Below, piece by piece: positions 3 through 43,015 of a stretch of 64,000 nt of DNA (its first letter is position 1; each line of letters starts with the position of its first letter). The stretch is from assembly GCA_000934665.2 (NCBI GenBank), contig KZ537985.1, positions 62,001-126,000 of the forward strand, read 5' to 3'. Position numbers and translations under genes: made by a program. The notes beneath the pieces were generated by a model, which saw only the letters and a program-made list of their open reading frames with translations, was not told the origin of the DNA and did not search any database. The stretch comes from Catajapyx aquilonaris (taxonomy: Eukaryota).

Positions 3-1472
3 GTGTCCAATGCCCTTGTAATTGCAAAGCAGAAGTTTGGCCGCCTGGACATGGCCATCAACTGTGCTGGAGTAGGGGTAGCATTCAAGACGTACAACTT
101 CAACAAGAAGATGCCCCACAAGTTGGACGATTTTGAGCGTGTAGTAATGGTGAACACGGTTGGCACCTTCAACGTCATCCGCTTGGCTGTTGGCCTCATG
201 GGAGAAAATGAGCCAGATCATAATGGGCAGAGAGGAGTAGTGGTCAACACTGCCAGCGTGGCAGCGTTTGATGGGCAGATGGGGCAGGCCGCTTACTCTG
301 CCAGCAAGGGAGCCATTGTTGGAATGACCCTTCCCATAGCCAGGGATTTATCATCGCAAGGGATACGTGTCTGCACCATTGCACCAGGTATGAACCGTAC
401 TGATTTGCCCCTTTTTGAGGATGATGATGTAAGTCAGTTTAACTCAACAGACAATTTTTCACTGCTTATGGCTTAGGCCTACATAAAAGGAAACGACAAG
501 TTGCAGTTGGTGTGTTTATATTCTTAATTGCCAGATATTCCCAAGACATGGTCAGGATGATGTAGGTATGACTGGCTCATTGTCCCTACAGTGTTATCAA
601 TCATACATCATTGTGACCATCTCAAGCACATCTGGACCTCTAATATTGTAAATGCACCTACTGGCTTCTTCAGGGCAGTGCTTGTTTCCAGTGATAAAAT
701 AATCATTTTATTGGAGTAATAATAATACTTTCAATAATTGTGGGTGGTGCTGTCACTTCTTTACCACGATACATTGCACAAAGATTCTGCAAGATAATAG
801 CAATGCCACTGAATATTGAGGCACGGTAAAGAATATTGTGAAGTCACGTTGAATAGTCGTAAATCACCATAAGCATCAAGCAAAGTAGTACAAGTAGATA
901 AGGGGGCCGTTCACACCTGGCAAGCCACGGCCAGGCCACGGCTTACAAGGTAGGCCAACTTCCTGGAAGTTGGCCAGGGCCGCGGCCAGCCGCGGCTAAG
1001 CTTGGCCGGTCTGCACGGCCCCAAGGACAAATATGGCCAGCCAAATGAAGGTACATGAATGACATGAATATCAAATTCTTTATGTCATGATTTTAAGAAG
1101 GCTATATTTTATCACATGCTATGTCAGTTTTGGGTTTTAGAGGACTAAGTCCTGGGTCCACCTTTAGACATTGTTTTCCACCTCACTCATATCATGCCCA
1201 CCCAGCATCTGTAATCGAATCACACACATTCCATATCACAGGTATCTTTGGCTTACAGTAATTGACCTCTTGTTTAAACAGGCCTTTTTGATACTCCACT
1301 TCTTGGGCAACTTCCCGAAAAGGTCCGCGCCTTCTTGGCCCGGACCGTGCCGTTTCCTCAGCGCTTGGGAGATCCAGATGAATATGCGCAACTTGTTCAA
1401 CACATAGTTACGAATCCAATGCTCAATGGGGAAGTTATCAGATTGGATGGAGCATTACGCATGCAGCCTTGA
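3..1472 (+). CDS. HSD17B10: 3-hydroxyacyl-CoA dehydrogenase type 2 / 17-beta-HSD10 (scully), last two exons (5' part outside window)
   Basis: Exon 3-387 encodes ...[18 protein letters not shown]...[37 protein letters not shown], with the SDR YxxxK motif. A GT..AG intron spans 388-1281. Exon 1282-1472 encodes [63 protein letters not shown], the typical HSD17B10 C-terminus. Confidence 0.96.
902..1022. mobile_element. Small palindromic MITE-like element (PIF/Harbinger-type ends) in HSD17B10 intron
   Basis: Imperfect TIRs GGGGGCCGTTCACAC.../...GTCTGCACGGCCCC. Internal hairpin GGCCAACTTCC-T-GGAAGTTGGCC (~953-975). TAA precedes the left end; the right TSD is not intact. Confidence 0.55.
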
Positions 1473-1552
1473 GCAGGGACTGAACTTGAATCATGAATTG
1501 CAATGAAATCAATGAATGTGGATTATACATACTAGCTATTTTTTGGTAATGG

Positions 1553-1558
1553 AATAAA
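1553..1558 (+). terminator. Polyadenylation signal of HSD17B10
   Basis: AATAAA ~80 nt downstream of the stop codon. Confidence 0.6.
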
Positions 1559-1589
1559 TAGTATGGCATTTATAAGCTTCTTGCATATG

Positions 1590-2332
1590 TTACTCAAGGG
1601 GTGAAACCTCAACATGTATAAAGGCTAAGTGTCTGCTCAAAATGAAGTCATACCGGTCCACTACACTAATTGTGAGCTCCAAAGGGAATATGAGTGGACC
1701 AGTCACAGGGCGGATCAGTCTGACAGAACCTGTAAATGTTCATATGAAGCGTACTGTCACTATTACACCAGAAAGCAGTGAATTTCAACAACATACCACC
1801 CCTGTTGTTCACTATGCAGTCAAAATATCCACCTCCATTTCCAGACGTGATATCAAATCTTAGCCAGAACTGCCTGGATTGCGTTGCTACAGCCTGGATT
1901 TTAGTCACAACCTGTTCAATGAACAAAAAATTTATGGCACATAAAATGTAAACATTAGCCATCAATACAGTCCTTTAAGCCATAGAATGACATGACATCA
2001 GACCAGCTGTGTTTTCTGAGCATGTGCAGTAGTATGTTTGAAGAGCGATTCGGGGACATGGTAGGAGGGAAGAACTGGGTGGAGACTGGCCATGTCGTTC
2101 TTTGACTTAACGGACTGTAGCTTCCTGCAACCAGCTACATGTTCTTCCTGCTGACCAAGATCAACGCAAATAAATGATAAGATACATCCTTACCATTGGA
2201 TTAGGGAGTCGCCTCAGAGTAGGAAGTGATATGAACTGATAAGTGATGGTCTTCGTATTATCCAGGATACATGAGCGATCTGCATGACGACAAGACCTTT
2301 TACACACAACGCTGTTTTCTAATGCATGATAT
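1590..2332 (-). CDS. FBLN1: Alternative fibulin C-terminal domain (fibulin-1D-like), three exons
   Basis: Exons 2194-2332, 1797-1911 and 1590-1729 have canonical AG/GT sites and compatible phases (2,0,1). They translate to (K)YHALENSVVCKRSCRHADRSCILDNTKTITYQFISLPTLRRLPNPM|VVTKIQAVATQSRQFWLRFDITSGNGGGYFDCIVNNRG|GSVRLIRPVTGPLIFPLELTISVVDRYDFILSRHLAFIHVEVSPLE*. The phase-2 acceptor matches the phase-2 donor at 3569. Confidence 0.85.
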
Positions 2333-2427
2333 CTGAAACCAGGATAGAGCACATGCAATTAATATGCAGTGCACTTACACGTATTACAAAGAGCTGAAAA
2401 AGCAACACTTTGTCCTGTTTTCGTGTT

Positions 2428-2433
2428 TTTATT
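2428..2433 (-). terminator. Candidate polyadenylation signal of the fibulin C-isoform
   Basis: TTTATT (AATAAA on minus strand) lies downstream of the C-isoform stop (3056) and just upstream of the first D-specific exon. Confidence 0.5.
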
Positions 2434-3055
2434 AAAGCATATCTACAAATTTCTGACTAGACATGAAAACTAACCAATTCAAACCATATAAATACTGCCA
2501 TACAGTTTGGGATATATTTTATAAAGTATTACAAATTGAGTGTGCCAATATTGTATGAAACAACAACGTAGTGGTTCAGCAGGAAAAAATTGTCTTGGTG
2601 TGATTTTGCTGATGCGCAGAGGTTTATGTGAGTGCTGGAAATATTGGATGATGATGAACATCACATGCACCCAAGAATTTCTGATTGTTTTTATATGGTA
2701 GAAATCAGTTTCGCTAAATTTTTTGTACAACTATTGCAACCCATCGTGCAATTAAAATGCAAATTGAGTTAACTCGTTGCATTTTTAAATACATTTCCCA
2801 TACTTAGGTTTATAAATACAAGTGCAAAAAAGAGAGCCACTCTGCTCCTGCCACCAACAACCTTGTAACAGCATACAAGTTTACTTATAGCAATAATGCA
2901 AATACCAAAATAAAAAATCAGAGCTGGGACTTCTTGATGTTGTCACACTCAATTGTACATAATCATGAACATTAGTCAATCACCAATGAAACAAAAAATT
3001 GGCAGTGATTAACCCACATTGTCATGCATCCCTCCATCTTTTAAGGAACCCTGAG

Positions 3056-6000
3056 TTAGAACTCGTACTGCGACACATATATAAAAAGCGTGGCCACAGC
3101 GGACCCAGCGAAGGCATTATTGTGGTATAGCTTCATAGTGAGCCTGAGCTGGACCTCCTGAGGGCCCTGAAGTGTCCTGACTAGAGAGATAACGGCCTGG
3201 TTGAAACTGGTCCTCTGCAGCTGGAAGGTGTCTCTTGCGGCAGCTTTTATACCCGTTGGAGCCCTCGAGTCGACAAGCTCCAATTCAAACTCGACTGAGG
3301 CAGAGTTCCACAGAGGACCACGCATGGTGAACAGGTCCAGACGTCCTGAGGAGCGTGGTAAAGCCAGGTTGGACACGAAGGTTAGGAAGTTGTAGGAGTA
3401 GCTGAGCGGCATCCGGCCACATTCAGGATCACCATCGCGGCACGAGGAGGGACCGCGCTTGCAGCGGCTGAAGCCCCGGCAGGTAAGAAGCAGGGGTTGG
3501 TATTAGTTTGTGTCCAAAGCCATGCTAGGGTTAGTTCCCTGGGCTTGTAAAATAGAAGGGTGACTCACTTTTTGTGTTCACGGTCTCGAATGTAGTTGGC
3601 TGGGCAGTTTATGGAGTGGCAGCGGTGGCCACCTCGCACATTGAGGCAAATTTCATTCTCACCTTGGCACACTTGACCTGCAGCACACTCGTCTATGTCT
3701 GAAAGCAGCAAAAGTTGGGGTTTCTATTGGGAAGCTCCCTACCATGAAAGGGCAAACCTTGGCATGTTCGTTCATCTGAACCAAGCTTATAGCCTTCTGG
3801 ACATTGACAAGTGTAGCTGCCAGGCTGGTTCATGCAGAATCCGACACACAAATTCTGGTCCTTGAACTGCTCACATTCGTCAATATCTTGACATGACCTG
3901 CAATGAATATCAGATATAGAGCCTCGATGCACAATTGGATTTGAAGAGAAATCCGTAGCTCATATCCAAAAAAAATACCTCTTGTCTGGTGCCAGGAGAT
4001 AACCAGCATCACACGAGCAGCGGTATGACCCCCACATATTGATGCAGTTTTGTTGACAAATTCCAGGTGTCTGAGTGCACTCATCAATATCTGTGTTGTA
4101 AGAGAGGTAAGTCATCAGAGGCAACCATTTCATATTCTGCCAGAAGCTTCACATACCAATGCAACTTTTCCCGTCATCTCCTTGGATGAAACCATCCTTG
4201 CAGATGCATCTGTAGGACCCTGGCATGTTTTGGCACTCTGAGTTGATAGAACACACCTGGGGAAAAGAAATTAGTTTAATAACGCCTTGCATGAAAGTGA
4301 CACTGCGATCGCTAATTAATTGGGATAGTTTATAGCCTGCATTGGGCATTTGTCGCAATGAATTTATTTATACAGTACAAGATAAAACTTCTCTGACTTG
4401 TCCTGAGTATCTGGTGCATTCGTCCACATCTTCACACCCTTTTTCCTTGTGGAATATGTATCCAGTAGGACATTGGCACACATATCCTCCAGGTCTGTTC
4501 TGGCATGTTTGACCTCTTTGGCAGTCGTGGGTGCCACGAGCACATTCATCGACATCTAGAATCAGCAGAGAAATATTTCGAGTCGAGATATGTTGATATA
4601 TTATGAGATGATGTCCAACTTACCAAGACACTGTGTTCCATATTCATTGCTCTCAAATCCAGCCCCACACTGGATTCGATTTTGGCAAACATATGATCCT
4701 AATGTGTTGATACAACGTTGATGTCGTTTGCATGGGTTGGTTCTGTCACATTCATTTATGTCTGCAAAAATGCATTTTATACACATTACCAATCCTAACA
4801 GGTCACGACTCTGGACAAAGAGAAGAATCACGAAACTGTACCACTACAAACACCCTTTAGGTCAGGCTCATGACCCTGAGGACACCCGGGAGAGAAGCAG
4901 TTACCGTCTTCAGACAAAAACATTCCAGGTTCACAACGCTTCTTATCACATCGAAATGATCCAGGAGTATTCCTGCACTGCCAGTTTGGTCCCAATGTGT
5001 TGCAGTTGTCAGTTTTTAGAGCACACTCATCATCATCTAGCATTTAGTAGAGGATTAGTGGAAGCATCTCATATAGCCAAGTAAGCCATGGTTAGTACCT
5101 TCACAGAAACTAGTTTGAGCATTCAGAGTGTACCCAGTTCCACAGCTGGTAGTACGAATGCATTGGAAGGATCCGATTGTGTTGTCACATCTTTGAGTCG
5201 GAAGGCATGTGTGGGAGCCCAGCTGGCATTCATTTACGTCTGCAGGGCAATCAGTGTACCATGTTATTATCTATTTTCAAAGTGTGCATTTTTAAGCAGT
5301 GAAAATGAGTGGCCAAGCTTACCCATGCAGCCCTGAGTGTAAGAGTCGAGGTTGTAGCCCATCTTGCATTGACACAAGTAGCTGCCGACTGTGTTCTCAC
5401 AATTTTGAGTACTGTCACAGGGACCATCTTCCTCAGTTTCACATTCGTCAATGTCTGTTAGTTACGTGCACCAGTGTGTTAGATGAGCTATACAAACACA
5501 AGTCAAGAAGAGTGTTCTTATCCACTTACCCATACATCTCTTGTAGAAGTCATCATACTTATATCCGGTATGGCACGTGGTCGTGATGGTCGAGGGAGAT
5601 GTTTGTGGCTGAAGTGGATCGACTGGACCTTTAGGACCACACCTGTAACCACCTACTTCATTCAGGCATATCTCAGTGTCTGGATTGCACAAGTCCTGCT
5701 GCTCTTCACACTCATTCACATCTGAAAATCCAGGGTAGGAACAGTCAAACAGAACGGTTGTCCAGCAATCACAATAAACAGGCTCTTCGAATTCACAGGA
5801 GTTGATTGACACACTCAATGAACTTCTCTGAATATCGAGTTTGTTCTAACGTGGTAAAACTGAAGCATTGCATGAACATGGCCAGTAAGCAGTTATGTGT
5901 GTTAGGGGTTGCAACTCATGTCGCATGACAGATTAGGTGTTAGAGCAGGAAGAAATCGCGATTGTCGTGATAATAGTACCGTACGGCACGATCAAATATG

Positions 6001-42883: not shown

Positions 42884-43015
42884 NNNNNNNNNNNNNNNNN
42901 NNNNNNNNNNNNNNNNNNNNNNNNNNNNNNNNNNNNNNNNNNNNNNNNNNNNNNNNNNNNNNNNNNNNNNNNNNNNNNNNNNNNNNNNNNNNNNNNNNNN
43001 NNNNNNNNNNNNNNN
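42884..43015. other. Assembly gap flanked by poly-G
   Basis: Run of N between G homopolymers. Confidence 0.95.

Follow-up and report, generated by a model that had tools for sequence, protein, structure and literature searches.

In both mammals and nematodes, alternative splicing yields C and D forms of the fibulin-1 FIB domain; nidogen-1 is bound ~30-fold better by mammalian 1C than by 1D, and in C. elegans FBL-1C and FBL-1D are found in different tissues, with some defects rescued by the C form only (PMC1747532). A second report describes FBLN1 as a gene of 20 exons and four variants (PMC6714394). Here we analyse a 64,000-nucleotide (nt) stretch of DNA from Catajapyx aquilonaris (contig KZ537985.1 of assembly GCA_000934665.2, positions 62,001-126,000; hereafter the window) that carries, on its minus strand, a fibulin-1-like gene running from ~10600 down to 3056 and containing many calcium-binding EGF (cbEGF) exons. 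From its letters alone, an earlier reading of this DNA (the original prediction) had proposed that a donor following the last EGF module can be joined to either of two alternative 3' ends, one C-like and one D-like, and that the C/D switch is retained in this invertebrate lineage. At the genomic level, retention is supported by the exons, their phases and the grouping of the distal tail with D-type domains, and we consider it likely that the gene is a fibulin-1 of arthropod (pancrustacean) type whose two 3' ends exclude each other.

In both mouse and human the C end consists of one exon and the D end of three, a layout that we did not find described in the literature and that is like the one-plus-three arrangement seen here. 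The locus also has in common with C. elegans fbl-1 and mammalian FBLN1 that one gene encodes a cbEGF array and then, after the last EGF module, alternative C and D tails. That vertebrate and C. elegans fibulin-1 make C and D isoforms was the background to the original prediction, and it agrees with the published account (PMC1747532). Relative to fbl-1 and FBLN1, the EGF array in the window is far longer (its exons span ~7 kb, and the named relatives are of 1000-1860 residues), no Pfam anaphylatoxin match is found in the N-terminal cysteine-rich exons (E<=0.01), and the D tail is one residue short. Those cysteine-rich exons (10654-9995, minus strand) match no Pfam family of any kind at that threshold, and they align in order, over 10597-9995, with the N-termini of the database proteins P0013, P0001 and P0061, the last of which has no anaphylatoxin match in Pfam either. 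Of the fibulin-1 architecture (N-terminal anaphylatoxin-like modules, a cbEGF array and a fibulin-type tail), the array and the tail are present according to Pfam and to homologue alignment, and named arthropod proteins ('fibulin-1', 'fibrillin-2-like') align collinearly from ~10600 to 3059.

The features at the 3' end of the gene, all on the minus strand, are as follows.

3569-3698, minus strand: last cbEGF exon (Pfam EGF_CA, 38.6 bits), with its acceptor backed by an RNA contig joint, 3698/3758
3056-3467, minus strand: proximal terminal exon, encoding the C-type fibulin C-terminal domain (412 nt; AG acceptor; stop TAA at 3056-3058)
2414-3055, minus strand: 3' untranslated region (UTR) belonging to the C form (AATAAA at 2433-2428; transcript ending near 2414)
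2194-2332, minus strand: distal exon d1, encoding a linker and the three-cysteine start of the D-type domain (139 nt; AG acceptor; donor GTAAGG)
1797-1911, minus strand: distal exon d2, encoding the central part of the D-type domain (AG acceptor; donor GTATGT; Fibulin_C match of 12.9 bits)
1590-1729, minus strand: distal exon d3, encoding the last part of the D-type domain (AG acceptor; TAA stop codon at 1590-1592; Fibulin_C match of 20.6 bits)
1569-1574, minus strand: TATAAA, a candidate weak poly(A) signal 15 nt past the D stop, from a scan of 13 hexamer variants over 1300-1589

At the 3' edge of the last cbEGF exon, two codon bases are followed by GTGAGT (GT at 3568-3567), a phase-2 donor that is in phase with two acceptors, at 3467 and 2332, each of which contributes the third base of the split codon. 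Both routes are free of stops until they reach their own, at 3056-3058 for the proximal exon and at 1590-1592 for the distal set. The distal route adds 130 residues beyond the split codon and uses canonical AG/GT signals at all five of its splice sites, and when the 390 distal coding bases were shuffled, the result was stop-free in just 12 of 20000 base shuffles. Checked base for base, the coordinates, splice sites and phases given by the original prediction are all correct, and phases and open frames agree with its claim that the donor at 3569 can be used for either 3056-3467 or 2194-2332/1797-1911/1590-1729.

The proximal exon encodes a canonical fibulin tail, which scored 96.6 bits against Pfam PF22914 (Fibulin_C; gathering cutoff 24.6) and covered profile positions 2-99 of 99. 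A word-index protein search with this exon gave 621 candidates, 56 of them at E<=0.001. All 56 are crustacean or insect proteins, named 'fibulin-1' or 'fibrillin-like' (the insect and crustacean records include 'fibrillin-1-like' ones), whose tails are 47-64% identical to the C exon of the window; among them are Penaeus, Macrobrachium, Homarus, Hyalella, Timema, termites (Zootermopsis), Schistocerca and Hymenoptera. This range of relatives marks the DNA as pancrustacean. None of the 56 has a D-type end (54 carry a C-type tail, P0033 is truncated and P0056 is divergent), as expected because these relatives were retrieved with the C exon as query. Insect 'fibrillin-1' records have recently been argued to be fibulin homologues with EGF and fibulin_C domains (2026, PMC13525746); the words 'alternative' and 'splic' are absent from that paper, and our literature search found no paper on C and D ends in arthropods.

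Transcript evidence came from a single small run covering this DNA (X1; 0.46 of words, kind not on record), which we regard as RNA-derived because its contigs are spliced, with CT..AC joints at 3698/3758 and 4090/4157. One RNA contig lies over 3023-3434, and another, with 0 mismatches, lies over 2414-3042 and ends 14 nt past the AATAAA. The contigs thus show transcription of the C exon and of its ~640-nt 3' UTR, and they place a real poly(A) site between the two 3' options. A minus-strand AATAAA between these options had been reported from the letters; it is indeed present at 2433-2428, is the sole AATAAA or ATTAAA on that strand within 1201-3060, and agrees with the contig end at 2414. Junction 3569/3467 is unbridged in the X1 contigs, which stop at 3434 and 3604. 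The same contigs cover neither d1-d3 nor the junctions 3569>2332, 2194>1911 and 1797>1729, a blank that is neutral with respect to D expression, and we infer from the genome sequence that the D end may be used. Within the intron between d1 and d2, an RNA contig of 331 nt matches 2009-2045 over 37 nt with 2 mismatches and leaves a 255-nt loose end; it probably derives from a repeat or an unrelated transcript.

The assignment of the distal exons to the D type is carried by profile scores, invariant residues and a tree. When Pfam was applied to the single unspliced exons, as opposed to the joined distal peptide, the d2 match covered Fibulin_C profile positions 27-50 and the d3 match positions 59-99, each below the 24.6-bit cutoff, and d1 had no match; the d2 and d3 matches are in the correct order along the profile. 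For comparison between subfamilies, the distal peptide was joined by script and scored against a D profile of six D-type tails and a C profile of 40 C tails, with shuffles as the control. Against the D profile it reached 129.5 bits (E 4e-39), whereas 39 distinct arthropod C tails scored 30.4 or less and 1000 shuffles 7.9 or less. Against the C profile it scored 10.9 bits, no better than shuffles (best 7.6 and 11.6). Sixteen columns are invariant in the D alignment A1 (P0058, P0059, P0064 and P0060), and the D tail of the window retains 15 of them. A maximum-likelihood tree of 22 tails separates the 17 C-type from the five D-type sequences, the window's D tail among the latter, with support of 100/100 and places the distal cassette on the D side.

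Taken together, the profile scores, the invariant columns and the split in the tree indicate that the window holds one tail from each of two old subfamilies. A direct global alignment of the window's C and D tails gave a score of 30 (z 4.3; best shuffle 31), too weak to establish homology by itself; the two tails are distant homologues sharing the Fibulin_C fold. Judged by identity to relatives (33-42% for D versus 47-64% for C), the D subfamily is the faster-evolving of the two. The original proposal that the distal cassette encodes another complete fibulin C-terminal domain, of a different type from the proximal domain, is supported by the D profile, by the tree, by the order of the Fibulin_C matches on d2 and d3 and by relatives that pass the Pfam cutoff.

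These relatives were obtained by a phmmer search with d1 (46 residues) against 1.84 billion representatives, which found 11 proteins at E<=0.001. Eight of them (P0058-P0061 and P0063-P0066) are fibulin D-type tails, and five (P0058, P0059, P0061, P0064 and P0066) are above the Pfam Fibulin_C cutoff, at 31-60 bits. The remaining three, P0057, P0062 and P0067, were set aside as repetitive proteins lacking a fibulin domain (by Pfam for P0057 and P0062, and by a shared repeat recognized by eye for P0067). P0061 (1373 residues) and P0066 (655 residues) are long cbEGF proteins in which, as in the distal route of the window, the last EGF module joins a D-type Fibulin_C domain directly; their Fibulin_C matches score 31.1 and 37.4 bits, their last EGF modules are respectively 73% and 56% identical to that of the window, and their tails are 33% and 37% identical to its D tail. 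P0066 has 45-47% identity to insect fibulin-1 over ~650 residues and P0061 has 33-37% identity to crustacean and insect proteins; a D-type end is already found on an arthropod-like fibulin-1 in at least two database proteins. Both come from other organisms, and their tails differ from the window's in having a closing aromatic pair. P0065, a 69-residue fragment that may be a vertebrate 1D, is 42% identical to d1 over 43 columns. In the ESM Atlas, P0058 and P0066 led to Fibulin_C/fibulin-1 clusters that are mostly chordate, with one arthropod and one nematode, and which we treat as leads only.

When aligned to the window with tblastn, the relatives were placed on all three distal exons, and their fit to d2 and d3 constitutes an independent check because only d1 had served as the query. 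The high-scoring segment pairs (HSPs) on d1 end at 2191 in six of the eight relatives, one codon beyond the exon end; d2 is matched by P0058, P0059, P0060, P0064 and P0066; and the d3 HSPs of P0058, P0059 and P0066 extend from 1730/1739 to 1593/1602. In four partial relatives the likeness is lost at exon borders of the window, at d1/d2 for P0063 and P0065 and at d2/d3 for P0060 and P0064. On the simplest reading, these four presumably run into introns at the same codons as the window.

Searches of the PDB by sequence returned only adaptin and TLR7 for the C exon (E>=0.11) and, for positions 61-111 of profile A1, only cadherin repeats, those of protocadherin-10 (E 0.047) and Fat4 (E 0.074). The cadherin matches of the D profile fall over its G-N-E..F-D stretch, and the ESM Atlas likewise gave cadherin clusters at 0.82-0.84 for P0058. 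This likeness is weak, and a common Ig-like or cadherin-like pattern of strands may be all that lies behind it; by sequence, the fibulin tail is without a solved structure.

The alternative that survives best regards the distal cassette as a relic: the lineage would have stopped splicing its ancestral D end, which is still intact by luck or because its disuse is recent. Several observations weigh against a working D end, and those on codon composition, on the 3' signals and neighbouring gene, on the end of the tail and on the word-index searches speak for a relic. The GC content at third codon positions (GC3) is 0.37, 0.45 and 0.49 in d1, d2 and d3, low and near the non-coding level, versus 0.65 in the C exon and 0.51 in the last EGF exon, and overall GC in the distal exons (0.42-0.47) is just slightly above that of flanking non-coding DNA (0.34-0.42). 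No AATAAA or ATTAAA follows the D stop, TATAAA at 1574-1569 being the only poly(A)-like hexamer found on the minus strand in the scan over 1300-1589, and a gene of the opposite orientation lies close by:

3-473 and 1278-1472, plus strand: convergent short-chain dehydrogenase gene (Pfam adh_short, 96.1 bits; stop at 1470-1472)

The dehydrogenase stop is ~120 nt from the D stop. On its 3' side an RNA contig (depth 52.5) reaches 1480, and a plus-strand AATAAA is located at 1553-1558, so use of the D end would leave the dehydrogenase and fibulin genes abutting or overlapping at their 3' ends. Besides being one residue short, the D tail of the window is without the closing aromatic pair of its full-length relatives P0058, P0059, P0061 and P0066. 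Word-index searches of 5.8 billion proteins, which are weak evidence, revealed no close relative, yielding one candidate for d1 and six for d3, none at E<=10. The D rows of the tree are on long branches (1.41 for the window's D tail versus a median of 0.24), and the orthology with FBLN1-D and FBL-1D is putative, with the fragment P0065 as its one lead, the D references being anonymous database proteins. Set against the points that favour a relic are 130 codons free of both stops and frameshifts, a state rarely preserved by the base shuffles, together with the full set of canonical splice sites, the near-complete retention of invariant columns and the high score against the D profile. The open frame, the five splice sites and the retained invariant residues point to constraint, and we judge it unlikely that the cassette is a relic.

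A second alternative assigns the three exons to the 3' end of a separate gene, either a remnant or a nested paralogue, as might be suggested by their position past a working poly(A) site and by a composition unlike that of the rest of the fibulin gene. However, the first base of d1 exactly completes the split codon of the phase-2 donor at 3569, and the C exon's 3' UTR, spanned by one RNA contig, occupies the 724 nt upstream of d1. In addition, C-type fibulin homologues have no matches below 3059, and P0061 and P0066 fuse an orthologous EGF module directly to a D tail; we therefore regard a separate gene as highly improbable. Chance open frames flanked by chance splice-like dinucleotides have nothing in their favour except the short length of each exon, and this origin is refuted by the tblastn placement of the relatives and by a D-profile score that no shuffle approached, the ordered Pfam matches also standing against it.

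On the favoured reading, in which each transcript of the fibulin-1 gene takes one or other of two 3' ends, the layout suggests that the tail would be decided by a choice of alternative last exon at the donor at 3569, just after the last cbEGF module. Splicing of 3569 to 3467 would commit the transcript to cleavage at ~2414, past the AATAAA, and thereby to the C-type tail. Splicing of 3569 to 2332 would instead take out a 1236-nt intron containing the C exon and its poly(A) site, so that d1, d2 and d3 together would encode the D-type tail. Because the AG of the distal acceptor is located only 81 nt beyond the C cleavage site, the outcome may be a race between proximal splicing and cleavage on the one hand, and transcription and recognition of the distal acceptor on the other. 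The exon-level facts are observed; the kinetics and regulation of the C/D choice are what we infer. By analogy with mammals and C. elegans, the matrix protein would differ in its binding partners or its location according to which of the two tails it carries.

Elsewhere in the window, an exon-sized open frame on the minus strand at 25486-26034 matches the GNT-I family (112.8 bits) and is probably part of an N-acetylglucosaminyltransferase gene, and a Pfam match was absent in 13 of the 15 long open frames scanned. Assembly gaps amount to 144 N in total, with the longest run being 132 (42884-43015) and five others shorter; none is near the fibulin tails.

The two-tail design is known from vertebrates and nematodes, and what is described here is its expected, and apparently under-annotated, retention in a pancrustacean. 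We tentatively entertain a broader reading, at somewhat less than even confidence: the layout would be an ancestral bilaterian splicing unit kept for more than half a billion years in arthropods, vertebrates and nematodes. It would comprise one shared phase-2 donor, a lone C exon followed by its own poly(A) site, and a D cassette of three exons whose introns fall at matching codon positions; arthropod gene models would systematically lack the D form. Such an omission could arise because the D exons lie behind a working poly(A) site, evolve several times faster than the C exon and probably have narrow expression. The finding leaves the understanding of how fibulins work unchanged, and it provides, for annotation, a concrete case of coding exons concealed past a functional poly(A) site. 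If arthropods keep both tails, studies of their basement membranes that consider the annotated C form alone would miss half of what the gene produces, and the C/D switch would be among the older conserved alternative-splicing events.

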